In this document: positions 9,957-63,633 of the stretch, piece by piece
How the letters are laid out: the number at the start of each line of letters is the position of its first letter
How positions within the stretch are numbered: the first letter of the stretch is position 1
DNA from: an uncultured Candidatus Saccharibacteria bacterium
Lineage (GTDB): Bacteria > Patescibacteriota > Minisyncoccia > Phycocordibacterales > UBA12445
DNA length: 64,000 bases
Direction of reading: 5' to 3'
NCBI GenBank assembly: GCA_964649715.1
Contig: CAZYTH010000004.1
Location: 18,135-82,134, forward strand
Position numbers and translations under genes: made by a program
The notes under the pieces: generated by a model
The model's database searches: none
What the model was told of the DNA's origin: nothing
What the model saw: only the letters and a program-made list of their open reading frames with translations

Positions 9957-10487
9957 GTGAATATGTTCTATTCTCTCTTGGTATTTAATATATTTAATAT
10001 GCAAACAGGAGAATTACATAATAGTAAAATAAGAGAGATATTGATAAAAAGCCTGAAAGAATCGAAAGAATCGATTCATCTGGTTCTTTCTTATTTTTTA
10101 GACAATGAGATTGCTGAAATAATAAAACAAAGATCGTCATCTGGTATTTCTGTTGAAATTATAATAAACGATGATACCGCAAACAGTTGGGCGATAAATG
10201 AATTATTTTTGTGTAATTTAAAGTTGCATTATTACAAGCCAGGAGGAGGAAGACCGTTGATGTATCAAAAGTATTGTATTGTTGATGGTGATATATTGAT
10301 CGCTGGATATCATAATTGGTCATATGCCGCTACCGCTTCAAAACACAAAGAATCTTTGGTCGTTGATGGAGAGAAAGAACTTGTCTCTATTTATTTAAAA
10401 AAATTCCGAAATATGACAAAATCATGTGGGATTGGTGCGGTAATTAATTTCAGAAACATCCAAAACGTTTTAAGGTATTCTGCTTAG
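9957..10487 (+). CDS. PLD-like (single HKD-type) domain protein with degenerate motif (Y-x-K instead of H-x-K)
   Basis: MYQKYCIVDGDILIAGYHNWS matches [H]-x-K-x4-D-x6-G-x-x-N except that the His is replaced by Tyr. Confidence 0.5.
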   Translation: MNMFYSLLVFNIFNMQTGELHNSKIREILIKSLKESKESIHLVLSYFLDNEIAEIIKQRSSSGISVEIIINDDTANSWAINELFLCNLKLHYYKPGGGRPLMYQKYCIVDGDILIAGYHNWSYAATASKHKESLVVDGEKELVSIYLKKFRNMTKSCGIGAVINFRNIQNVLRYSA

Positions 10488-10600
10488 TATTTATTCCACA
10501 AAAAAATTTGAATATCCGCATTTAGTGGGGTTGGATTTTTTATTAGAAAAAAAAATGTTAATATTGGTCAATCAAATAATATTTTTCAAATAAAAAATAA

Positions 10601-11338
10601 ATGAAAAAAGATAAAATATTCATATATGGTAAACATGTATTAGATGAGGCATTGAACAACTGTCCTGATATAATAGAAAAGGTTTTCTTATCGGAAAATG
10701 TTATATCTGACAGCACAAAAGATAAATTAAAAGCGTGTAAAATACCTTTTTCAGATATATCTCTTAAAAAAGAAATACCGACTGATATCGAAAAAGATGC
10801 TTCGCATCAAGGAGTTTTCGCTAAGATATCTTTAGAGAAACTCCTGGTTCCTTTTGAGAGTTTCATCTCCGATATTGTTCCGACCAAAAATGCTTCATTG
10901 GTTCTTCTGTCTGGAGTTCAAGATCCTCAAAACATGGGAACAATTATTCGTTCGTCCGTTGCTTTTGGCGTTTCGGCTGTTTTAATACCCACGAAAAGTC
11001 AGTCTCCAATCACCGCCTCAGTTGTAAAAACATCAGTAGGTATGGTTTTTAGGACCAAAATTGTTTTGGTTGAAGATGTTCAGTTAGCGTTATCTCTTCT
11101 GAAAAAAAGAGGATTTTTTGTATATGGAATGGATGGAGATTCTGAAAATTCTATAAAAAACGAAAAAATTGTATTTCCTTCTGTTTTTGTTTTTGGAAAT
11201 GAATCTGTCGGTATAGAAAAAAATATTTTTAATGTTTGTGACAAAATTTTATCTATACCTATGGAGGATGGTTGTGAATCCTTAAATGTTGCTGCGTCTG
11301 CTGCAATTGTTCTATACGAACAATACAAGCAGAAATAG
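10601..11338 (+). CDS. SpoU/TrmH-family RNA 2'-O-methyltransferase (RlmB-like)
   Basis: SPOUT motifs: VLLSGVQDPQNMGTIIRSSVAFG, FVFGNESVGI and LNVAASAAIVLYE. Confidence 0.8.
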   Translation: MKKDKIFIYGKHVLDEALNNCPDIIEKVFLSENVISDSTKDKLKACKIPFSDISLKKEIPTDIEKDASHQGVFAKISLEKLLVPFESFISDIVPTKNASLVLLSGVQDPQNMGTIIRSSVAFGVSAVLIPTKSQSPITASVVKTSVGMVFRTKIVLVEDVQLALSLLKKRGFFVYGMDGDSENSIKNEKIVFPSVFVFGNESVGIEKNIFNVCDKILSIPMEDGCESLNVAASAAIVLYEQYKQK

Positions 11339-11346
11339 TTATTAAA

Positions 11347-11913
11347 ATGAACAATAGAGACGATGGGGATATTATTTCTGACTACCTTAATGGGAATGAG
11401 GATTCTCTCAGGGAAATAATTTCCAAGTATATAGAGTCTGTTTATAGGTTTTCCTATCGTTTGACGGGGAATAAAAATGACTCAGAGGATATCACTCAGG
11501 ATATTTTTATTAAAGTGTGGAAATATTTAAATAGGTACGATAGAAAATTCTCTTTTAAAACTTGGCTTTTTACGATTGCAAGAAATACGATTTACGACTA
11601 TTTGAGAAAGAAAAAGGATATTCTTTTTTCTGATATTTTGAGGGGTGACGGGGAATATGATTTTGAGGATAATATTAATGATGAAAATATTGACATTGAA
11701 GCTGAGTTGATTACGTGTGAGGATGCAGAAGAGCTGAGGGCGGAGATTAAAAATCTTCCTAGTGAGGAAAAAGAGATACTGTCTTTACATATTGAAGAGA
11801 AGCTTACTTTTGATGAAATATCTGGAATATTAAAAAAGCCCCTCAATACTGTTAAAAGTCGCTACAGGAGAATTGTTTTAAAATTGAAGAAAAGAATTGC
11901 ACCAAAAGAATAA
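11347..11913 (+). CDS. ECF-type RNA polymerase sigma factor (sigma-70 regions 2 and 4)
   Basis: Region 2 (DITQDIFIKVWKYLNRYD ... TWLFTIARNTIYDYLRKK) and region 4 HTH (LTFDEISGILKKPLNTVKSRYRR). Confidence 0.8.
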   Translation: MNNRDDGDIISDYLNGNEDSLREIISKYIESVYRFSYRLTGNKNDSEDITQDIFIKVWKYLNRYDRKFSFKTWLFTIARNTIYDYLRKKKDILFSDILRGDGEYDFEDNINDENIDIEAELITCEDAEELRAEIKNLPSEEKEILSLHIEEKLTFDEISGILKKPLNTVKSRYRRIVLKLKKRIAPKE

Positions 11914-18949: not shown

Positions 18950-20602
18950 ATGACACAAAAAGAGGCACTCGATATATTAAAAATGGGGCACAACGCCTTT
19001 ATTACCGGCGCGGCTGGAAGCGGTAAGACGCATCTCTTAAATGAATATATAAAATATCTTAAAGACAATGATGTTGATATTGGTATCACAGCTTCTACCG
19101 GCATAGCAGCCTCTCACATGGGAGGGCAAACCATTCACGCTTGGTCTGGTATTGGTGTAAGAGACTCGCTTTCTCCATACGACATAGAAGGTCTTGAGGA
19201 AAGATCTTATTTATGGAAAAGATTTGAGAGGGCGAAGGTCTTGATAATAGACGAGATTTCGATGTTGCATCATTTTAGGTTGGATCTTGTGGAACAAATC
19301 CTACGTTCTTTTAAAAGAAACAATGAACCATTTGGAGGATTACAGGTTGTTTTCTGTGGTGATTTTTTTCAGCTTCCGCCAGTCTCAAGACAGGGGGAAC
19401 AAGAAGCTTTTTTCGCTTATCACTCAAGAAGCTGGAAAGAACTATCACCAAAGATATGTTATTTAAATGAGCAACACAGACAAAATGATTCTTCTTTTTT
19501 GGAAATATTGAATTCTATTAGAGGAAATAGCGTATCTGATAAAATTAAAGGGAAACTTTTATCAAGACACAAAAAAATAAAAGAAGACGTGGATGGGTTA
19601 ACAAAAATATATACACATAACGCTGACGTGGATATGGAAAACGAAAGAGAGCTAGAGAATCTTTCTGGCAGAATATTTGAGTACAAAATGATTAACAAGG
19701 GACACGAATTTTTATCTGAAACATTAAAAAAGGGATGTCTTTCTCCAGAAAACTTGCGCCTGAAAAAAAATGCGAGAGTAATATTTACAAAGAATAATTT
19801 TGAGTGTGGTTATGTTAACGGCACACAGGGGATAGTTACTGCTTGCGATGGCTCTGGTATTAAGGTAAGAACACTGGGGGGAAAAACGATAGAGGTGCCT
19901 CTTGCCACATGGGTTATCGAAGAAGATGGAAAAATAAAGGCTGAAATCACTCAGTATCCTCTTCGTCTTGCATGGGCTATTACTGTCCACAAAAGCCAAG
20001 GAATGAGTCTTGACAGCGCAGAGATAGATCTTTCTAGGGCATTTGAGAGCGGAATGGGCTATGTTGCTCTTTCACGGTTAAGATCCCTTGATGGGTTATT
20101 TTTGACTGGCCTAAACGACACCGCTTTAAAAGTTGATGAGGAGGTCTTTGAATTCGATCAACGATTTAGTGATTCTTCCTCTGCACACAAAGCAGAGTTG
20201 GCTGAATTGGATCCAAAAACTATTAAAGAAAAACAAGAAGAATTTTTAAATAAAATCTCCCCACGGGGTGGTAAGAAAAATAAAAAGAAAAAACTAACAA
20301 CATTTGAGATAACAAAAAAAATGCTAGAAGATGGTAAGTCTCTTCTGGAAATTGCGGTTGAACGTGACCTAAACTCCACCACGATACTTGACCACTGTGA
20401 GAAAATAAAAACAACCGAACCAGGGTTTGATTTTAGCGGGGTGACTAAAATAATTAGCGCTTCTCGGCAAAAGAAAATACGAGATGCCTTGATAAGGTGT
20501 GGTAAAGAAAACGGTAAATATCTGCTATCCCCGGCGAAGAATAAACTTGGTCCAGGATTTAGTTTTGACGAAATAAGATTGATTAGGCTTTTGTTAAATT
20601 AA
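18950..20602 (+). CDS. Pif1/RecD-family ATP-dependent DNA helicase
   Basis: Walker A GAAGSGKTH, Walker B LIIDEISM, PIF1-like motifs, a C-terminal 2B/SH3-like part and an HTH tail. Confidence 0.75.
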   Translation: MTQKEALDILKMGHNAFITGAAGSGKTHLLNEYIKYLKDNDVDIGITASTGIAASHMGGQTIHAWSGIGVRDSLSPYDIEGLEERSYLWKRFERAKVLIIDEISMLHHFRLDLVEQILRSFKRNNEPFGGLQVVFCGDFFQLPPVSRQGEQEAFFAYHSRSWKELSPKICYLNEQHRQNDSSFLEILNSIRGNSVSDKIKGKLLSRHKKIKEDVDGLTKIYTHNADVDMENERELENLSGRIFEYKMINKGHEFLSETLKKGCLSPENLRLKKNARVIFTKNNFECGYVNGTQGIVTACDGSGIKVRTLGGKTIEVPLATWVIEEDGKIKAEITQYPLRLAWAITVHKSQGMSLDSAEIDLSRAFESGMGYVALSRLRSLDGLFLTGLNDTALKVDEEVFEFDQRFSDSSSAHKAELAELDPKTIKEKQEEFLNKISPRGGKKNKKKKLTTFEITKKMLEDGKSLLEIAVERDLNSTTILDHCEKIKTTEPGFDFSGVTKIISASRQKKIRDALIRCGKENGKYLLSPAKNKLGPGFSFDEIRLIRLLLN

Positions 20603-30513: not shown

Positions 30514-33354
30514 ATGAAAACGAAGAAATACGACCACAATAAGATAGAGGGTTCTTGGCAAAAAAAATGGACAAAAGCCAAACTCTTTAAAACAGAAAAG
30601 CCTGGTAAAAAACCAAAGTGCTTTGTGCTTGACATGTTTCCATTCCCATCAGGCGACGGACTTCATGTCGGACACCCAAAGGGGTATATCGCAACTGATA
30701 TATATTCCCGATACAAGAAAATGAACGGCTTCAACGTTCTTCATCCTATGGGATGGGATGCCTTTGGTCTTCCAGCGGAAAACTATGCCATTAAAATGAA
30801 GATTCATCCCGAGGTTGCTGTTAAAAAAAATATAAAGAGATTTAAGGGTCAGCTCCAAAAGATTGGATTCAACTATGACTGGGAAAGAGAAATAAGCACG
30901 GCTGATCCTGCTTATTATAAATGGACTCAATGGATATTTCTTCAGCTGTTTAAAAAAGGCCTAGCCTATGAATCTTATGAACCGATAAATTGGTGTCCTT
31001 CGTGTCAGACAGGACTCGCAAACGAAGACCTTGACGGTGATACCTGTGAGAGGTGTGGTTCAAAGGTAGAAAAGAAACCAATGAGGCAATGGGTTCTTAA
31101 AATTACAGATTATGCTGAAAAAATGCTTAAAGACTTAGACGGTATTCCTTGGTCGGAATCAATAAAAGAGCTTCAGAGAAATTGGATAGGTAAATCAGAG
31201 GGCACTTTAATAAAATTCCCAATCTTCAATTCTCATTTTGAAATAGAGGTTTTTACAACAAGAGTCGATACTATTTACGGATGCACTTATGTTGTCTTAG
31301 CACCGGAACACCCATTTCTTAAGAATAATGAATTGGGAATAAATAACTACGAAGAAGTAAAGAAATATATAGAGGAAGCGAAAAATAGGCCGGAGATAGA
31401 GAGGCTTGCCGAAAAAAAGGAAAAGACAGGCGTGATATTGGAGGGAGTTTCTGCAATCAATCCATTCAATAATGAGAAAGTTTCTATCTTCGTGGCCGAT
31501 TACGTCCTTGGAAATTATGGGACGGGAGCGGTAATGGCGGTGCCGGCACACGACGAAAGAGATTACGAATTTGCCAAAAAACAAAACTTGCAAATTAAGA
31601 AAACGGTGGCTCCCATAACAGGTGAACCGAAAGAAGCCGAGGAGTTTAGGAAGAGTATCGTGGCCCTGATTGAGAATAAAAAAACAGGTGAGTTCCTTTT
31701 ACTTGATTGGGGGGAGAAATTTGGCGGTCATCTGCTTATCGGCGGAGGTCTTAAAGACCGTGAAGATTTGGTTGAATGTGCAAGAAGAGAGGTCGCAGAG
31801 GAAACCGGTTATAAAAATTTGAAATACATCGGACAAACTGAGATTATTCATCATCACTATTTTGCATTTTCAAAAAATAAGCAGAGGTACATTGAGGCTG
31901 TTGGGATTCATTTTGAGCTTGATGGCGACAAGATGGTTCAGCAAGAGCTTGAGGAAGATGAAAAAAGTAAATTTAAAGTTGAGTGGATACCAAAAGAAGA
32001 AGCTGAAAAATTAATAAAGGACCCCCTGCATAATTATGTTTTCCAGAGTTTAATAAATGGGAAAATATATACCGGAGACGGGATTCTCTTTAATGCTGGA
32101 GTTTATTCAGGAATGACATCAACCGATGCCCGAAAAGAAATGTCTTTATGGCTTGAAAAAAATAAATTTGGAAAGAAAAAAATAAATTACAAAATAAAAG
32201 ACTGGGTTTTTTCAAGACAGAGATATTGGGGAGAACCAATACCTGTTGTTCATTGTGAAAAATGTGGAATTGTAGCTATTCCAGAAAAAGAATTACCCCT
32301 ACTTCTTCCTAAGGTAAAAAGTTATGCTCCTACCGGCACAGGAGAGTCGCCTTTGGCTAATATTTCAAAATGGGTAAATACAAAGTGTCCAAATTGTAAG
32401 GGTAAAGCAAAAAGAGAAACAAACACAATGCCCAATTGGGCCGGTTCTTGTTGGTATTATCTAAGATACATAGACCCAAATAATAAAAAAGAGATCGTGG
32501 GCAAAAAAGGAGAAAAATACTTTATGCCCGTAGATTTGTACGTTGGCGGAGCAGAACACGCCACAAGACATCTCATATATGCTAGATTTTGGCACAAATT
32601 TCTTTTTGATATTGGCGTGGTAAGTCACAATGAGCCGTTTAACAAACTACATAGCGTTGGCCTTATATTGGCAGAAGATGGCAGAAAAATGAGCAAGAGA
32701 TGGGGAAATGTGATTAATCCAGACGATGTTATAAAAACTTATGGAGCAGATACTCTTCGCGTTTATGAAATGTTTATGGGTCCCTTTGGACAATCAATAT
32801 CATGGAAAACAGAGAATATGATAGGATCCAGAAGGTTGATAGAGAAAGTTTGGAGGATGCAGTTCAAGATAGACAATAAAATTAAAGCGGATAAAAAAAA
32901 TATTTCAAAACTACACGAAACAATAAAAAAAGTTTCAGAAGATGTTGAAAATTTTAGTTTTAACACAGCGGTGAGCGCGATGATGATATTCGGCAACGAG
33001 TTAGATTCAATAGAAAAAATACCGGAATCTATATATAAAAGTTTTTTGCTTTTATTTTCTCCTTTTGCTCCGCATGTTACAGAAGAAATATGGCACAACA
33101 TAGGTTGTAATAATTTTATCTATAATGAGAAATGGCCAAAATTTGATCCTGCGAAAATAAACAAAAGTGATTTTAATCTTATAATTCAGGTAAATGGCAA
33201 GACAAGGGATACTGTCTTGGTTGAAATCGGAACAGGTGAGGAGAAAGTCAAAGAAATTGCATTAAGCAAAGAAAACGTAAAAAGGAACATCGAGGGAAAA
33301 ATAATCAAGAAGACAATTTACGTTAAGGACAAACTGATCAATATTGTTGTTTAG
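30514..33354 (+). CDS. leuS: leucyl-tRNA synthetase with an inserted Nudix-hydrolase-like domain
   Basis: HIGH (HVGHPKGY), CP1 editing motifs (TTRVDT, GTGAVMAVPAHDERDYEFA) and KMSKS (KMSKR). Between the editing domain and the KINYKIKDWVFSRQRYWG core block sits an extra segment of about 145 aa with a perfect Nudix box, G-x5-E-x7-REVxEExGY, spelled GGLKDREDLVECARREVAEETGY. Confidence 0.9.
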   Translation: MKTKKYDHNKIEGSWQKKWTKAKLFKTEKPGKKPKCFVLDMFPFPSGDGLHVGHPKGYIATDIYSRYKKMNGFNVLHPMGWDAFGLPAENYAIKMKIHPEVAVKKNIKRFKGQLQKIGFNYDWEREISTADPAYYKWTQWIFLQLFKKGLAYESYEPINWCPSCQTGLANEDLDGDTCERCGSKVEKKPMRQWVLKITDYAEKMLKDLDGIPWSESIKELQRNWIGKSEGTLIKFPIFNSHFEIEVFTTRVDTIYGCTYVVLAPEHPFLKNNELGINNYEEVKKYIEEAKNRPEIERLAEKKEKTGVILEGVSAINPFNNEKVSIFVADYVLGNYGTGAVMAVPAHDERDYEFAKKQNLQIKKTVAPITGEPKEAEEFRKSIVALIENKKTGEFLLLDWGEKFGGHLLIGGGLKDREDLVECARREVAEETGYKNLKYIGQTEIIHHHYFAFSKNKQRYIEAVGIHFELDGDKMVQQELEEDEKSKFKVEWIPKEEAEKLIKDPLHNYVFQSLINGKIYTGDGILFNAGVYSGMTSTDARKEMSLWLEKNKFGKKKINYKIKDWVFSRQRYWGEPIPVVHCEKCGIVAIPEKELPLLLPKVKSYAPTGTGESPLANISKWVNTKCPNCKGKAKRETNTMPNWAGSCWYYLRYIDPNNKKEIVGKKGEKYFMPVDLYVGGAEHATRHLIYARFWHKFLFDIGVVSHNEPFNKLHSVGLILAEDGRKMSKRWGNVINPDDVIKTYGADTLRVYEMFMGPFGQSISWKTENMIGSRRLIEKVWRMQFKIDNKIKADKKNISKLHETIKKVSEDVENFSFNTAVSAMMIFGNELDSIEKIPESIYKSFLLLFSPFAPHVTEEIWHNIGCNNFIYNEKWPKFDPAKINKSDFNLIIQVNGKTRDTVLVEIGTGEEKVKEIALSKENVKRNIEGKIIKKTIYVKDKLINIVV

Positions 33355-57874: not shown

Positions 57875-58429
57875 TTATAATTTTTCGATAACTTTATCTG
57901 TCTGTTCTTCTAAGTATAATAAGTCTCTATCATTTATTATCGAGAAATCAGCGAGCTTGCTACAAGCTATCAACCTTTGACCTTTTTCTCCTCCGTCTAA
58001 CTCCAAAGCTTCTTTAGCCTCAAAATCAGCCAGACTCTCCCCGTCTCCAGCCCTTCCCCTAGACGTAGACCTCTCATATCTAAGCTCTATCGGAGCATCA
58101 ACAAATATTAGCTTAAAGTCATAAAAATTTTTCTTAATTTCTTCTGGCTCTGCTGGATTTCTGATACTAGTTATAACTATCTTTTCAGAACCATCATCCT
58201 TTATCCTTTTTATGGCTCGGATAGCAAGCTCGTTTGCATTAAAATTCTCTCTTATCTCATTTCCCACCCTAATCATGTTGTCCCTAGAATGTTCCAACCC
58301 CCTTTTTGTAAGTTCAAAACGTATCTCATCTGAAAGAGAAAAATTTTTGAAACTATATTTTTGTACTAGGTATTCTGCGACAGTGTCCTTCCCTGAAGCG
58401 TTTGTCCCTGTTATTCCAATGACTTTCAT
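57875..58429 (-). CDS. P-loop nucleotide/nucleoside kinase (dephospho-CoA kinase / AAA_17-like)
   Basis: Walker A GITGTNASGKDT and a lid-like RGRAGD. 184 aa. Confidence 0.55.
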   Translation of the reverse strand: MKVIGITGTNASGKDTVAEYLVQKYSFKNFSLSDEIRFELTKRGLEHSRDNMIRVGNEIRENFNANELAIRAIKRIKDDGSEKIVITSIRNPAEPEEIKKNFYDFKLIFVDAPIELRYERSTSRGRAGDGESLADFEAKEALELDGGEKGQRLIACSKLADFSIINDRDLLYLEEQTDKVIEKL

Positions 58430-58695
58430 AATATTTTATTAATAATACCACTCTCAAGATGCCAGCCACCATCAGGGCATTTCTCCTCGAAAATAACAAA
58501 CACCTTATTCATTTCAAAATCATGCCCAATGGCTTCCTTTTTATTAATTCTGTGTTTACCACAAGAACAGTGTTCTATTGTATAGTCCAATTCAGAATCT
58601 ATTTCTTTATGTTTGCCACCACAGTGATGAACAACATGCTTACCCTCTTTGTGATGAATATGATGAAATAAATAAATTATACTTTGATTTTTCAT
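58426..58695 (-). CDS. hypothetical His/Cys-rich small protein (putative metal-binding)
   Basis: HHIHHKEGKHVVHHCGGKH ... HCSCGKH ... CPDGGWH. Confidence 0.4.
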   Translation of the reverse strand: MKNQSIIYLFHHIHHKEGKHVVHHCGGKHKEIDSELDYTIEHCSCGKHRINKKEAIGHDFEMNKVFVIFEEKCPDGGWHLESGIINKIL

Positions 58696-58766: not shown

Positions 58767-59033
58767 TTATTTCTTTTTACATTTGCAATCAGGGCAATCA
58801 CCATCTTGTTTTGAACACTCAAAAAATTCAGCTTGTTCCTCGTCGCAACCACATTCAAAATTTCTGTCTTCTTGGGAATATCTTCTGATACTTAGACAAA
58901 TGCCAATTGCTACCAAGAAAACAGCTAAAATCAAAAGATAAACCAATCCAGCATCAATACCAAGCAAAAAAACAAAGGGAGAGAAAACAAAAAGTAAAAT
59001 AGCGACAAGAATAAGTGATGTGATTTCTTTCAA
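58767..59033 (-). CDS. hypothetical membrane protein with Cys-rich acidic tail
   Basis: Two TM helices, then ECGCDEEQAEFFECSKQDGDCPDCKCKKK. Confidence 0.45.
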   Translation of the reverse strand: MKEITSLILVAILLFVFSPFVFLLGIDAGLVYLLILAVFLVAIGICLSIRRYSQEDRNFECGCDEEQAEFFECSKQDGDCPDCKCKKK

Positions 59034-59097: not shown

Positions 59098-59862
59098 CTA
59101 TAAATTTAAGCCCTCCATTTCTCCTGCAGATTCTCTATAAGTGCAATAATCACAATCAGGACTTGGTTTTGGCATCTCATCACACACAAGACATTTACGC
59201 ACTCTTTCCAACGCCTTTTCCATCCACGAGTCATCTCCTTTGTGCGGAATTATTTTTATATCAAATTCGAGCTTGCCGTCAAACGCCTTTCTGTCAGTTT
59301 TCCCATTGCAATAAACAAAATATGCCGTATCTGAAACTTTAAAACCATTTTGTCTAAATAGCCACTGATACATCTCAACCTGTCTTTTATATCCTATCTG
59401 CCAATCAGCATCAAGTGTTACCTCTTCTTCTTTCGACGTGGCCTTATAGTCAACTATGTGCAACTCCCCTTTCTTATTGACCCAAACATCATCCACCCCT
59501 CCTGTTATAAGAAGATTTGTTTGCTTGTGGTGAAATTGTATTCCCCTCCTCAACGCATCCCGCCATTCATCCATTCTTTCGTCACGAAGAGGTACCACAT
59601 CTATTCCATAATGATCCATAAGGGGGTGTTTTGTTTGTTCCGCCCTATGAACATCAAATTCTTTTTTTAAAAGAGTATCTACCGCGGAATTTAAATTAAA
59701 AGGAAATCCTGGTGGTCTATCTACACCGAGTCTGCGGTCCAAATAAAAACATCTTGGACAATTTAAAAAAAGATCTATCCTTGAGCGAGATAACTTAAAA
59801 GGCTCTTTGGATTTTGGATCAAAGATGTTCTTTGTTCTTTTTCCTGAATAGTATTTGGACAT
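59098..59862 (-). CDS. Cas4-family PD-(D/E)XK nuclease (RecB-like, Fe-S Cys cluster), paralog B
   Basis: N-terminal Cas4-like CPRCFYL, motif GGVDDVW ... IVDYK, RecB-family QxxxY (QVEMYQ) and a C-terminal CxxC...CxxC. Confidence 0.7.
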   Translation of the reverse strand: MSKYYSGKRTKNIFDPKSKEPFKLSRSRIDLFLNCPRCFYLDRRLGVDRPPGFPFNLNSAVDTLLKKEFDVHRAEQTKHPLMDHYGIDVVPLRDERMDEWRDALRRGIQFHHKQTNLLITGGVDDVWVNKKGELHIVDYKATSKEEEVTLDADWQIGYKRQVEMYQWLFRQNGFKVSDTAYFVYCNGKTDRKAFDGKLEFDIKIIPHKGDDSWMEKALERVRKCLVCDEMPKPSPDCDYCTYRESAGEMEGLNL

Positions 59863-59924
59863 AAAGAAGATTTAAGATTTGTAATCAAAAACAATAGTAG
59901 AAGTATAACAATTTTAAGCCAAAT

Positions 59925-59950
59925 AAAAAAGCGGGTCTTTTGCCCGCTTT
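59925..59950 (-). terminator. rho-independent terminator (minus strand) between the two nuclease paralogs
   Basis: aagcggg-tctttt-cccgctt with a T-run on the minus strand. Confidence 0.7.
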
Positions 59951-59961
59951 AAAGATAAATA

Positions 59962-60717
59962 TTATTTTATTTCTTTCCTTACCTCGTCCCAATAGAGACA
60001 AAGATCGCAATTTTGACCCCTTGGTGGTATTTTTGAAGCGTTCAGACAGGAGTGCGCATTAATTATTGAACGCTCAACCCAAAAATCGTCTCCCTCATAT
60101 GGAACAATTTTCATCTCAAATTCCAACTTGCCATCAAAAGCATCTTTATCTTTCTTGCACACACAAAGCAAAAAATATCCGACATCTTTTACTGTGAAGC
60201 CGTTTTTTCTGAAGAGCCATTGATATACCTCTATCTGACGTTCACACATTCTTTTCCACCCAGGATCAAATGCTCCCATGTCTGAATTAGGTACAGCTTT
60301 ATAGTCAACAATGATAATATCGCCGTCTCCTGAAATCCAAACATCATCAACTCCGCCGGTGATAATGAGATTAGTTTTTTTGTGCAAAAACTGTATCCCT
60401 TGTCTCAAGGAATCACGCCATTGATTGAGATCAGGGTGGGAAAATGGAATAGCGTCTAAGCCGAATTCTTCCATTATTGGATGTTTTTTGCCGATTGTTC
60501 GATAAGAATCAAATTCTTTTTTGAGAAGTGCGTCTATCATAATGTTTAAAGTCATTGGGAAAATCGGTGGCCTATCTATCCCAAGCCTTCTGTCAAGATA
60601 AAAGCACCTTGGACAATTCATAAACATCTCAAGCCTATATCTGCTTAATTTATATGGTATTTTCGAACCTGGATTATAAATATTTCTAACTCTTCTTGGT
60701 CTGTAATATTTAGACAA
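59962..60717 (-). CDS. Cas4-family PD-(D/E)XK nuclease (RecB-like, Fe-S Cys cluster), paralog A
   Basis: Same motif set as paralog B (CPRCFYL, GGVDDVW ... IVDYK, QIEVYQ, C-terminal C...CxxC). About 55-60% identical to paralog B. Confidence 0.7.
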   Translation of the reverse strand: MSKYYRPRRVRNIYNPGSKIPYKLSRYRLEMFMNCPRCFYLDRRLGIDRPPIFPMTLNIMIDALLKKEFDSYRTIGKKHPIMEEFGLDAIPFSHPDLNQWRDSLRQGIQFLHKKTNLIITGGVDDVWISGDGDIIIVDYKAVPNSDMGAFDPGWKRMCERQIEVYQWLFRKNGFTVKDVGYFLLCVCKKDKDAFDGKLEFEMKIVPYEGDDFWVERSIINAHSCLNASKIPPRGQNCDLCLYWDEVRKEIK

Positions 60718-60781
60718 AAACCCTCCTTAATTATCAAAGATCGAATCTCTAAATTTTATTATAACAGAATCTCAAAAAATT

Positions 60782-61453
60782 TTAATTAATAGGGTGAATA
60801 TCTTTTCCTTTTAATTTATATTTTTCTATCTCCTTGTGGTTTCCAGATAAAAGCACGCTCGGAACCTTATGTTTTCTACCTTTCCATTTTAAAATCTCGG
60901 GTCTTGTATACATTTCCCCTGAAGACACCCTTTCCTCTTCAATAGATTCATTTTTTCCAAGAACCCCTTTTATCTGCCTAGAAATCGAATCGATCATAAT
61001 CATCGCAGGCAACTCCCCTCCCGTAACCACAAAAGGGCCAACAGATATTTCTTCCGCTTTTAAAATTTTCTTTACCCGTGAGTCTATGCCTTCATACCTA
61101 CCGCAGATTAAAATAATATCCCTAACGCCACTCTTGTTTTTTACAATCTTCTTAGCGAACTCATTTGTAAACTGCTCACCACGTGGTGACATTATAAATA
61201 TTTTTGCTTTCTTTCTGCCCTTAGCCCTTAGGGCTGCTTTAATTATCGGTTCCGCATACATAACCATCCCCGGGCCACCTCCATACGGCCTGTCATCAGC
61301 TTTATGATGTTTATCTATTGTAAAATCTCGCGGATTATAAAACTTAAAATTGATCAATTTATTTTCTTTTGCGCGTTTCAAAATCGACTCATTTAAATAA
61401 GAGCCGAACATTTCTGGAAAAAGCGTGATGATGTGGAAATTAATCATTGTCAA
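60782..61453 (-). CDS. trmD: tRNA (guanine37-N1)-methyltransferase
   Basis: SPOUT/TrmD motifs: ITLFPEMF, DDRPYGGGPGMVM and GRYEGIDSR. Confidence 0.85.
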   Translation of the reverse strand: MTMINFHIITLFPEMFGSYLNESILKRAKENKLINFKFYNPRDFTIDKHHKADDRPYGGGPGMVMYAEPIIKAALRAKGRKKAKIFIMSPRGEQFTNEFAKKIVKNKSGVRDIILICGRYEGIDSRVKKILKAEEISVGPFVVTGGELPAMIMIDSISRQIKGVLGKNESIEEERVSSGEMYTRPEILKWKGRKHKVPSVLLSGNHKEIEKYKLKGKDIHPIN

Positions 61454-61542: not shown

Positions 61543-63633
61543 TTAATGGCTTCCCCCGCCACCTCCACCACCACCCCCTCCGGATGATCCGCCACCCCCT
61601 GAACCACTACTGCTACCAGGGGAAGATGTTAGCGAGTCTCCAGCAAAAGAACCAAACGAATCTATTGAACTCGCGAAAACCCCTGCATTAAATGTTCCCC
61701 CCTGCACATCACTATACCAAGATGGTGGCGTTGTATAAATTCCCTCAAACTCCTTGGCCCATATTTTAGAAACACCTAGTGTCATTGCGTAAGGTAAAAG
61801 TTTTTCAAAAAGCTCAGGGCTTTTTTCGGGCGCGTTATAGAATTCTAGCCTATCTTTTTCGGCGATACGAAGATAATCAAGAAGACCTAGCAAATATTCA
61901 TATGTGACCATCCCTTTTTCGGTTTTTCGGGGCATGTAATAACCAGTAACACCAATAACTATTGCAGATAAAATGAGTGAAATTATTGTAGATACGCCAT
62001 AGTAATTATACAAATATTCCCCACCCAAAAAACAAGCAACCACCATTAGAAAACTAACGATAGTAAATTCAGAACGAAATCTGCCTGGTTTTCCCTCATA
62101 ATAACCCTTAGAAACAACGACATCACTAACCATATTTTCAATCAAAGATGCTTCTTTATAAAATTTTTCATTAAGCAAAGAAAGTCTAATTTCTCTTTTT
62201 AAAGAACCGACGGAAATTTCATTTCCCGTATCCTCTCCGACAAGATCCCTTGAGATAATTTTTGCTTTTCCTGTTAATATCGCTTTCGCAATCGAAAAAC
62301 CTAAAAATAAAACAAATAATATCGGTATCATGTATATCATTCCAAAAAGCAACAACGCTCCCATTGCAGGAATAAATTTATAAGAATCTGGTAAATAACT
62401 TCCACCCACAATTGTTATAACTGCAGTTAAAGCTACAATCGAAGTATAAACGTAGATTATTATCTTCCAAGTTTTATTTATTTTAAGCTTGGACTCTGAT
62501 ATATTCTCTCCACCCACATTCCTGATTTCTTTTTCCGCATTCTCCAACTTTCTCGTTTCTGCAAAGATTTCCTCGTCTCCAAATAATGATTCCATCAATT
62601 TTTTCTGATGTGGTGGTAAAAAAGACATATCATCCTTGGTCTTTTCTAAGCTATAATCTTCCGGCAAACCACCCAAAACACTGTTTCCTATTTTTCTTAT
62701 TTTGAGATATCCCCTAATCGCAAGCTGTATTATTTCTGCTGAGATATCATTGTTGTGGCTAATCTCATTAATAATCATTCCCACCTCCATCGGCGTAAGC
62801 CCATCTGGCACATCATATTGCGGAATAATTACTCCAGTCCCCTTTGGGTCTCGCCCTTTTGTGTACCACAGGTAAAACATCAAAAAAAATACCAGAACAG
62901 GGAGCATAAAAATCTTGTTGTCCCAAATAGCGCCTAGAATATTTTCCCACATTGTCGGTTCGTAGACTATCCCCTTCGGAAAGCCAACAGCTACAGTAAG
63001 ACCCTCTTGCGGGACATAGTTCCTCGAGGAAAAGAAAACTACCGATTCAACAAGATTGTTGTTTTTAAATAGTCTATGCGGACAACTTTCTTTACTCCCC
63101 CTGACACCCTGATAACAAGATATTTTTAGTTGGCTTTCGGGTAATGGCTTGGGCAAAACAACTTTTGCAGAAGCATAATTTATGGGCACATTCCATTCGT
63201 CACCCGTCGCATTCCAGTATATCTCATCAAAATCTTCAAAATAACCAATGGTCCCATTTACTTTGTATTTGAATATATACGGAACAACCCCATTAACGTG
63301 GGTGTCCGGATCTGGATTTGTGTCTATTCTCAAATATTTTCCATACTTATAAAATTCATAGTTATCTGTATTTACAGATACATCAGAAAAATAAAAATTA
63401 AAATTTCCATAATCCGCCTTGTATTTTCTTGGTATATCTCTATATAGACCATGAAGCTCCCTGCCATTACTTAAATTATCAAAATCGTAATTTATTTTTT
63501 CAATTACATTTATAGAAGAATCTTTGTTTACCCTGACCTCAACGTCAAAGCTCTTTATGCTTTCTCTGGCCGAAGAATAATTAAAAAAAGACAAAAAAAT
63601 AAAAACAAATAAAATTTTTTTTGTAAAATTCAT
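61543..63633 (-). CDS. DUF2207-like membrane protein with C-terminal Gly/Ser-rich tail
   Basis: Signal peptide, large extracytoplasmic domain, TM helices and a GSSSGSGGGGSSGGGGGGGGGGSH tail. Confidence 0.6.
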   Translation of the reverse strand: MNFTKKILFVFIFLSFFNYSSARESIKSFDVEVRVNKDSSINVIEKINYDFDNLSNGRELHGLYRDIPRKYKADYGNFNFYFSDVSVNTDNYEFYKYGKYLRIDTNPDPDTHVNGVVPYIFKYKVNGTIGYFEDFDEIYWNATGDEWNVPINYASAKVVLPKPLPESQLKISCYQGVRGSKESCPHRLFKNNNLVESVVFFSSRNYVPQEGLTVAVGFPKGIVYEPTMWENILGAIWDNKIFMLPVLVFFLMFYLWYTKGRDPKGTGVIIPQYDVPDGLTPMEVGMIINEISHNNDISAEIIQLAIRGYLKIRKIGNSVLGGLPEDYSLEKTKDDMSFLPPHQKKLMESLFGDEEIFAETRKLENAEKEIRNVGGENISESKLKINKTWKIIIYVYTSIVALTAVITIVGGSYLPDSYKFIPAMGALLLFGMIYMIPILFVLFLGFSIAKAILTGKAKIISRDLVGEDTGNEISVGSLKREIRLSLLNEKFYKEASLIENMVSDVVVSKGYYEGKPGRFRSEFTIVSFLMVVACFLGGEYLYNYYGVSTIISLILSAIVIGVTGYYMPRKTEKGMVTYEYLLGLLDYLRIAEKDRLEFYNAPEKSPELFEKLLPYAMTLGVSKIWAKEFEGIYTTPPSWYSDVQGGTFNAGVFASSIDSFGSFAGDSLTSSPGSSSGSGGGGSSGGGGGGGGGGSH

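Follow-up and report, generated by a model that had tools for sequence, protein, structure and literature searches.

Genes for Cas4-like nucleases lying outside cas loci (solo-cas4) are common among candidate phyla radiation (CPR) bacteria, where they are mostly inherited vertically, evolve under purifying selection and are of unknown function (Hudaiberdiev et al. 2017, PMC5704561). The same survey reported a "genomic median" strength of selection for solo-cas4 and gave little space to the pfam12705 branch. Among solo forms, biochemical characterisation is available for one protein only, Solo-Cas4 of Methanosarcina mazei, an Mn2+/Mg2+-dependent DNase whose Cys-ligated [4Fe-4S] cluster is dispensable for catalysis (PMC12501428). 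Furthermore, MMSYN1_0389, a Cas4-like nuclease with DUF2779, is quasi-essential in the minimal genome JCVI-syn3.0 (PMC13621843). Here, we analyse two adjacent genes of this type, designated copy 1 and copy 2, in a stretch of 64,000 nucleotides (hereafter the window) from contig CAZYTH010000004.1 of an uncultured Candidatus Saccharibacteria bacterium. We consider it probable that this locus is a duplicated stand-alone, solo-Cas4-like metal-dependent nuclease with a core cellular role, copy 2 being its diverged paralogue. As cas-less Cas4-like genes have been known to be common in CPR bacteria since 2017, the pair adds to a functionally uncharacterised kind; specific here are the degree of conservation of the family, the non-canonical pattern of six cysteines and the rare maintained paralogue.

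Family assignment and motifs of the pair

Both genes are encoded on the minus strand, copy 2 (59962-60717, 251 amino acids (aa), TTG start) being the upstream and copy 1 (59098-59862, 254 aa, ATG start) the downstream gene. An earlier reading of this DNA, made without database searches (the sequence-only reading), had described two adjacent same-strand genes of 251 and 254 aa, in agreement with the open reading frames (ORFs) called here, but had set their identity at 55-60%, which was too high: the BLASTP alignment shows 129 of 242 positions identical (53%) and 73% positives, with no gaps (E = 9e-106). This similarity is far above chance, and the two genes are clearly paralogues.

The sequence-only reading had ascribed Cas4/DUF83 hallmarks to both proteins and named two Pfam profiles as a check. 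PDDEXK_1 (PF12705) is indeed passed by both (59.6 bits for copy 1 and 37.8 bits for copy 2, cut-off 22), with the alignment of copy 1 spanning model positions 2-244 of 247. The Cas4 profile PF01930, on the other hand, remains below its cut-off for copy 1 (20.1 vs 22.7 bits) and does not match copy 2, and TIGR00372 (cut-off 65) is reached by neither protein (37.4 and 18.4 bits for copies 1 and 2, respectively). With PADLOC-DB v2, the two proteins gave weak matches to Cas4 models only (best 6e-11) and one to a Cas1g model. A precomputed PF01930 match is present on some other members of the family, and many homologues carry the JGI label COG1468 (Cas4); the best Pfam match of the pair is PF12705.

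Motif invariance was judged on a family alignment of 36 sequences including both copies. Invariant in all of them are N-C35-P-R-C38-F-Y-L, G-G-V-D124-D125, V-D138-Y-K140 and Q161-x-E-x-Y165 (as Q-x-E-x-Y-Q-W), so that the RecB-type motif set (D, (D/E)xK, QxxxY) is complete in both copies. The alignment also contains six invariant cysteines (C35, C38, C185, C224, C237 and C240), arranged as CX2C...C...C...CX2C. The Cas4 hallmarks claimed in the sequence-only reading, i.e. the motifs and cysteines at both ends, were thus found and are invariant, but the spacing of the cysteines is not the canonical one.

Copy 1 was modelled by AlphaFold2 with good confidence (pLDDT 87.6, pTM 0.86). The top Foldseek matches of the model were RecE (1.4e-6), the nuclease domain of AdnA (1.7e-5) and MGME1 (3.6e-5), followed by Cas4 (4R5Q, 4IC1, 8D3L), a DinG-fused nuclease, Exo5 (4e-4), ACE1, AddB and RecB, at E values of 1e-6 to 1e-3 and all of them remote (TM 0.4-0.5, 10-18% identity). 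From the sub-threshold Cas4 profiles and the remote fold matches we conclude that copy 1 belongs to the RecB nuclease superfamily, in which it is Cas4-like but not a close Cas4. A true CRISPR Cas4 was rejected, since the profiles are sub-threshold and neither cas genes nor an array are present in the window.

Three points stand against reading the pair as solo-Cas4-like nucleases acting on DNA. The cysteine pattern differs from the C...CX2CX5C of canonical Cas4 and AddB, no cysteine being found five residues past C240; no solved structure was detectable when chains of the Protein Data Bank (PDB) were searched by sequence and with the family profile; and the proposed DNA substrate and cellular role are drawn from remote fold similarity (TM 0.4-0.5, 13-17% identity). 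The PDB matches that did appear, a stretch of a GH48 cellulase ("YKRQxExYQWL", E = 0.15-0.6) and a USP7 fragment, were rejected as chance. The corresponding segment of copy 1, DWQIGYKRQVEMYQWL (window positions 59362-59430, residues ~150-172), weakly resembles the GH48 sequence DWxxSYKRQLEFYQWL, and this resemblance was likewise taken as chance.

Distribution and conservation of the copy 1 family

Homologues of copy 1 form more than 8000 clusters at 90% identity. The best 120 of these are 68-84% identical to copy 1, and the named clusters among them belong to Patescibacteria (Moraniibacteria, Pacebacteria, Komeilibacteria, Minisyncoccia). When one genome per species was scanned, at least 577 species proved to possess a homologue, among them Parcubacteria-type as well as Microgenomates-type lineages (e.g., Levyibacteria, Roizmanbacteria, Woykebacteria); the best 80 of these homologues have 62-73% identity. 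Almost only names of Patescibacteria came back even when the remotest members were used to make the profile. In a library clustered at 50% identity, 2051 clusters were matched at E <= 1e-3, of which 324 reached E <= 1e-30.

The gene is present in single copy in 84 of 86 loci. No neighbour is conserved across these 86 loci, the commonest neighbouring cluster occurring in 5 of them, and no helicase recurs next to the nuclease. The sequence-only reading had proposed a comparison of neighbourhoods in related genomes; in this comparison, 132 flanking genes of 80 loci match 124 different Pfam families, each found in at most 4, and the top matches listed for these genes include no Cas families. Cyclophilin, TspO, PEBP, DUF192, the large subunit of exonuclease VII (ExoVII) and an OLD-like ATPase recur as neighbours in a few loci each. 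In one relative, L006, the copy 1 orthologue (79% identity) is found in the same synteny as in the window (trmD...copy 1-kinase...M23), and copy 2 is absent.

Within the same pairs of genomes, the mean identity of the nuclease is 67.8% as compared with 47.7% for co-located genes (331 comparisons), and the nuclease is the more conserved protein in 93% of these comparisons; they were made on the 80 loci that resemble the query most, a choice that inflates nuclease identity and has to be set against the contrast observed. The divergence of the nuclease tracks that of the co-located genes (Spearman 0.43) and therefore speaks for vertical descent. Altogether, the sequence comparisons indicate that inheritance of the family is mainly vertical and that purifying selection on it is unusually strong. 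A phage origin was rejected, as a tblastn search of 50,697 phage genomes yielded no homologue and the viral structures of BFVD gave remote fold matches only.

Copy 1 is the orthologue of this Patescibacteria-wide family. Because of its usual presence once per genome, its mainly vertical inheritance and the strength of purifying selection, the family behaves as a core cellular gene and not as a defence gene.

Two exceptional arrangements deserve mention. The locus L031 contains an independent tandem pair on the plus strand (10001-10783 and 10767-11441, overlapping by 17 nt). Its first member belongs to the core family (67% identity to copy 1), whereas the second, a PDDEXK_1 protein of 224 aa, is only 30% identical and retains CPxCF, DD, DYK and QxxxY. 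Fusions of the nuclease with NUDIX, HD_4, GYF plus TIR, or DUF2779 domains occur in the relatives P0202, P0229, P0241, P0242 and P0200; the NUDIX-fused relatives form a cluster of 46 members that is 54% identical to copy 1, and one relative is a 749-aa protein with two matched stretches.

Divergence and maintenance of copy 2

Apart from itself, the closest matches of copy 2 are P0122 (76%) and P0130 (71%), all others being members of the main family at 53-58%. Orthologues of copy 2 are present in two related loci, L003 and L005, at 74-76% identity and with the catalytic residues and all six cysteines kept. In both loci, a copy-1-type gene (79-80% identical to copy 1) is located downstream of the copy 2 orthologue on the same strand, separated from it by an NTP-transferase gene in L003 and by two small ORFs in L005.

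The Kimura distance of copy 2 is 0.74 to the copy 1 proteins of its own clade and 0.82 to the rest of the family, that of copy 1 to the rest of the family being 0.46; within the clade, the copy 2 proteins are 0.29-0.37 apart and the copy 1 proteins 0.23. These distances are consistent with a duplication shortly before the small clade diversified, copy 2 being a lineage-specific paralogue that probably arose in the ancestor of this clade of about three genomes. We estimate that the stem branch of copy 2 evolved about five-fold faster and that near-normal rates followed. The sequence-only reading had suggested a recent diversification of the pair. A diversified duplication it is, with paralogues 53% identical and many family positions replaced in copy 2 (see below), but not a recent one, the copy-2 type being shared by at least two other genomes at 74-76% identity, with other genes between the copies.

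The phylogeny of the two copies, another check named in the sequence-only reading, weighs against this origin, since the neighbour-joining tree puts copy 2 at the base of the family, away from the copy 1 of its own clade, although by distance it is closer to the latter. The basal position is probably due to long-branch attraction; we took the placement of copy 2 from the pairwise distances and distrusted the tree topology for its long branch. Acquisition of copy 2 from a distant lineage, i.e. as a xenologue, is the less probable alternative.

Of the 80 columns that are near-invariant in the family (at least 95% conserved), 13 are replaced in all three copy-2 orthologues, as compared with a mean of 0.7 and a maximum of 7 in ordinary members. 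T142V and K144N lie just after the catalytic DYK strand; Q155K, Y158C and K159E are at the start of the QxxxY helix; V183L, Y184L, N186V and G187C surround C185; the changes at F55, A60 and V61 are at the start of the helix bearing D62/E68; and Y85F completes the set. These replacements around the active site point to an altered specificity acquired after a burst of divergence; most likely, copy 2 is still a nuclease but differs in its preference for substrates or partners. It also reveals which positions are free to change while the catalytic residues stay.

The rate of nonsynonymous substitution (dN) is 0.14-0.20 for copy 2 and 0.13-0.20 over both copies, with synonymous substitutions (dS) saturated. 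Because its catalytic residues and cysteines are kept and dN is low at saturated dS, copy 2 is best regarded as a maintained gene with a remodelled active-site surround rather than a pseudogene. The public copy 2 protein, P0121, has 221 aa and is called from an internal ATG. The database start is probably wrong, and we favour the 251-aa reading from the TTG at 60717, because a Shine-Dalgarno (SD) sequence, AAGGAGGG (AAGGAGG, 60721-60728, minus strand), precedes this TTG and because the homology to copy 1 and to the L003 and L005 orthologues covers the 30 residues N-terminal of the database start.

An intrinsic terminator, AAAGCGGGC-AAAAGA-CCCGCTTT followed by a T-run, was found by a terminator scan 3' of copy 2 (59928-59950, minus strand). 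Its GC-rich stem folds with -12.7 kcal/mol (z = -2.05 vs shuffled sequences), and it is predicted to put copy 2 and copy 1 into different transcription units. The 64 nt after copy 1 fold no better than shuffled sequences (z = -0.08) and contain no convincing terminator; of the terminators ascribed to each gene in the sequence-only reading, only that of copy 2 (59950-59928) could thus be retained.

The arrangement of the two genes bears on the possibility, raised in the sequence-only reading as a heterodimer, that copies 1 and 2 form a hetero-oligomeric nuclease and act as one functional unit. A copy-1-type gene lies within ~1.5 kb on the same strand wherever the flanks of copy 2 suffice to see it (the window, L003 and L005), both copies are under purifying selection, L031 offers an independent tandem pair, and Cas4-family enzymes are often oligomeric, M. 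mazei Solo-Cas4 having ~318 kDa (PMC12501428). However, a strong terminator separates the two genes, the spacing varies and other genes intervene in L003 and L005, ~98% of the sampled genomes do with one copy, and the replacements in copy 2 sit on elements bearing the active site and not on an obvious interface. Such a complex is conceivable but, in our view, unlikely.

Gene context, possible role and relation to known systems

The gene order on the minus strand is DUF2207 membrane protein, trmD, copy 2, copy 1, two small Cys/His-rich ORFs and an AAA_17/dNMP-kinase-like gene. In the spacer between trmD and copy 2, a promoter scan found a promoter-like TTAAAA-16 nt-TATAAT with TG (60758-60785, minus strand; 10/12), which is a consensus match only. 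The first of the small ORFs (58767-59033, minus strand) has a strong SD and encodes 88 aa, in which two membrane helices are predicted and the tail (ECGC...CSKQDGDCPDCKCKKK) is Cys-rich. As copy 1 has no terminator behind it, this ORF is probably co-transcribed with copy 1, the first terminator-like hairpin past copy 1 being located after the 88-aa ORF (58757-58736, minus strand). The ORF is missing in L006, and its adjacency to the nuclease is not kept in relatives. The second small ORF (58426-58695, minus strand; 89 aa) is His/Cys-rich (HHIHHKEGKHVVHHCGGKH...HCSCGKH), and 4 nt at its end are shared with the beginning of the AAA_17/dNMP-kinase-like gene. No Pfam match was obtained for either small protein; both may bind metals.

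Upstream, on the opposite strand, are homologues of mraY, ftsW, murG and gltX and a gene for an M23 peptidase, and elsewhere in the window argS, rpoB, rpoC, dnaG, rpoD, leuS, aspS/asnS-type synthetases, ABC/HlyD/MacB exporters and a PIF1-like helicase. The gene context of the pair is thus a housekeeping one. The statement that these Cas4-like nucleases lack a CRISPR-cas context has held: no CRISPR array (tandem or interspaced repeats) was found in the window, none of its other genes matches Cas models, and the Rfam scan of the window gave one tRNA and nothing else. The check by PADLOC, which the sequence-only reading had also named, found no defence system in the window. Matches to RT_UG29/RTasDnaG-like, RecD-like, mad3 and MzaA models did occur among the other window genes but were not taken as defence genes. 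Most of them are explained by the DnaG primase, the PIF1-like helicase and the ABC/HlyD exporters; for the MzaA match, which was left without an assigned gene, a housekeeping homologue is assumed. Likewise, a mobile element or gene conversion was rejected, as the sole DNA repeat is the paralogous core itself (89 nt, 74%) and flanking terminal repeats are absent.

Three other genes in the window were noted as well. The PIF1-like SF1 helicase (18950-20602, plus strand), the source of the RecD-like PADLOC matches, has a C-terminal HTH_40 and stands alone amid housekeeping genes. The leucyl-tRNA synthetase (946 aa, 30514-33354, plus strand) contains a NUDIX domain (PF00293, 1.1e-13, residues 379-504) directly after the editing domain, an unusual architecture. 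The DUF2207 membrane protein (61543-63633, minus strand) ends in a long Gly/Ser tail, SSGSGGGGSSGGGGGGGGGGSH.

In the mechanism that we propose for the pair by homology to RecB-family nucleases, the binding of Mg2+ or Mn2+ and the cleavage of a DNA strand would depend on D124/D125, D138 and K140, together with E68/D62 (an acidic residue of the D62-E68-D70 helix) and Q161/Y165. A Cys-bound metal centre, either iron-sulfur (Fe-S) or zinc, would be held by C35/C38 and C224/C237/C240 and tie the N-terminal CPRC helix to the C-terminal CDYC helix, stapling the two ends of the protein as in Cas4, AddB and Exo5. AddB and Exo5 carry an Fe-S "staple". The enzyme would act in the processing of DNA ends or single strands during repair, recombination or the handling of incoming DNA, and by analogy with its structural relatives, a core role of this kind seems most likely.

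A more far-reaching version makes the family a lineage-defining, essential housekeeping nuclease of Patescibacteria, either as their chief enzyme for the resection or processing of DNA ends, in place of RecBCD/AddAB, or as a 5'-end-dependent exonuclease through which the uptake or decay of nucleic acids feeds the nucleotide supply. The NUDIX and HD fusions and the local dNMP-kinase-like gene hint at the latter option. We regard this version as rather doubtful; if it were true, the paralogue pair would be a natural experiment, with a second isoform that gained a new substrate through changes around its active site, possibly in a hetero-oligomer with the ancestral copy.

Closely related to this is the suggestion that the family serves nucleotide salvage or 5'-end-dependent decay, degrading imported DNA (or RNA) to mononucleotides in organisms that lack de novo nucleotide synthesis. 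One report states that CPR bacteria are unable to make nucleotides (10.64898/2026.07.13.738296). Furthermore, fusion partners in relatives include NUDIX (a cluster of 46 members, 54% identity to copy 1) and HD_4 phosphohydrolase domains, and the nuclease gene of L006 overlaps the downstream AAA_17/dNMP-kinase-like gene, the same kinase being located ~670 bp downstream in the window. Nevertheless, no more than 2 of the 86 loci show the linkage to the kinase, the fusion partners vary and comprise TIR and DUF2779 as well, and very high conservation of the whole protein would be unexpected for a bulk degradative nuclease. A salvage function is improbable to the same degree.

Some neighbours of the nuclease in other genomes are defence-like. 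In L001 (4843-6970), genes for an EcoRI-type methylase and a GmrSD_N/HNH protein directly precede the nuclease gene. In L002 (2808-7993, 11335-12087), the nuclease gene is directly preceded by those for an N6_N4 (type III-like) methylase and a ResIII helicase; an integrase gene is found on either side, and a HEPN gene and xseA/xseB are close by. The restriction-modification (R-M) neighbours of L001 and L002 are not general among the 80 other loci. OLD/GajA-like ATPase-TOPRIM genes, found in 3-4 loci (132 flanking genes), lie directly upstream of the nuclease. These sporadic neighbours are at odds with a purely core function, and the pair, or the whole family, could be seen as an anti-phage or anti-plasmid nuclease that degrades invading DNA, possibly together with its neighbours. 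The R-M-type genes, integrases and HEPN gene, the OLD/GajA-like genes and the fusion of one relative to GYF and TIR domains would agree with this, and solo-Cas4 adjoins R-M genes in some DPANN archaea (PMC5704561). However, no neighbour recurs in more than 5 of ~80 loci, the flanking genes being spread over 124 Pfam families; conservation of the nuclease greatly exceeds that of its neighbours and its divergence follows theirs, whereas defence genes are patchy and mobile; the window is a housekeeping context without a PADLOC system; and no phage homologue was found by sequence. A defence function is therefore quite improbable, and the suggestion of the sequence-only reading that the pair marks a defence module finds no support, the copy 1 orthologues being conserved, nearly always single-copy and without conserved neighbours. 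A repair role, which that reading had also named, is plausible.

Finally, decay of copy 2 into a non-functional duplicate, to which its greater divergence, its weaker Pfam score and the N-terminally truncated database call of 221 aa might be ascribed, is effectively refuted by the intact ORF with a strong SD at the homology-supported TTG, by the orthologues in two genomes (74-76% identity, catalytic residues and six cysteines conserved) and by the dN of 0.14-0.20 at saturated dS.

We thus return to a duplicated solo-Cas4-like nuclease with a core cellular role. The tandem pair appears to be an ordinary lineage-specific duplication and does not represent a defence system or one related to CRISPR that would be new. 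CPR/Patescibacteria account for much of bacterial diversity, but little is known of their core biology; biochemical work is therefore reasonable on a nuclease whose conservation across the group exceeds that of adjacent housekeeping genes and to which no function has been assigned.

The described solo-Cas4 proteins (PMC5704561) are among the known systems closest to the pair, sharing with it the stand-alone organisation of ~250 aa, the RecB motifs, an N-terminal cysteine of the C-P-R type and C-terminal cysteines. Like them, the pair is located outside cas loci and known functional contexts (in the window and in the 86 loci), and its family is mainly vertically inherited and under purifying selection (Spearman 0.43; dN 0.13-0.20 with saturated dS). 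In contrast to them, both proteins score as PF12705, below the PF01930 and TIGR00372 cut-offs, and possess six invariant cysteines arranged as CX2C...CX2C instead of C...CX2CX5C; moreover, the present family is conserved much more tightly than the "genomic median" given for solo-cas4. M. mazei Solo-Cas4 is likewise a stand-alone Cas4-family protein without cas neighbours, but it is archaeal and reported to have no RecB motif (PMC12501428), whereas the CPR family keeps QxxxY, and a close relationship of the sequences was not established. With CRISPR Cas4 (SSO0001, 4IC1; Pcal_0546, 4R5Q; the type I-C protein, 8D3L), the pair shares the fold class and the set of catalytic motifs (Foldseek E = 7e-5 to 4e-4 for the copy 1 model, 13-16% identity, TM 0.38-0.42); it differs in having neither cas1/cas2 nor an array and in its length, which is greater by ~50 residues and includes an extension conserved at the N-terminus (MSxYY...). 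The best structural matches, the nuclease domains of RecE, AdnAB/AddAB, MGME1 and Exo5, all process DNA ends or single strands; unlike AddAB, AdnAB and RecBCD, the pair consists of free-standing proteins of ~250 aa with no helicase or other domain. In contrast to the multi-gene defence systems of PADLOC-DB v2, conserved partner genes were not found beside the nuclease. MMSYN1_0389 offers a parallel as a Cas4-like nuclease kept in a reduced genome, and DUF2779 is also the fusion partner in a single distant relative of the family studied here; however, MMSYN1_0389 belongs to another Pfam family, is fused to a DEDD nuclease and has only two of the cysteines.

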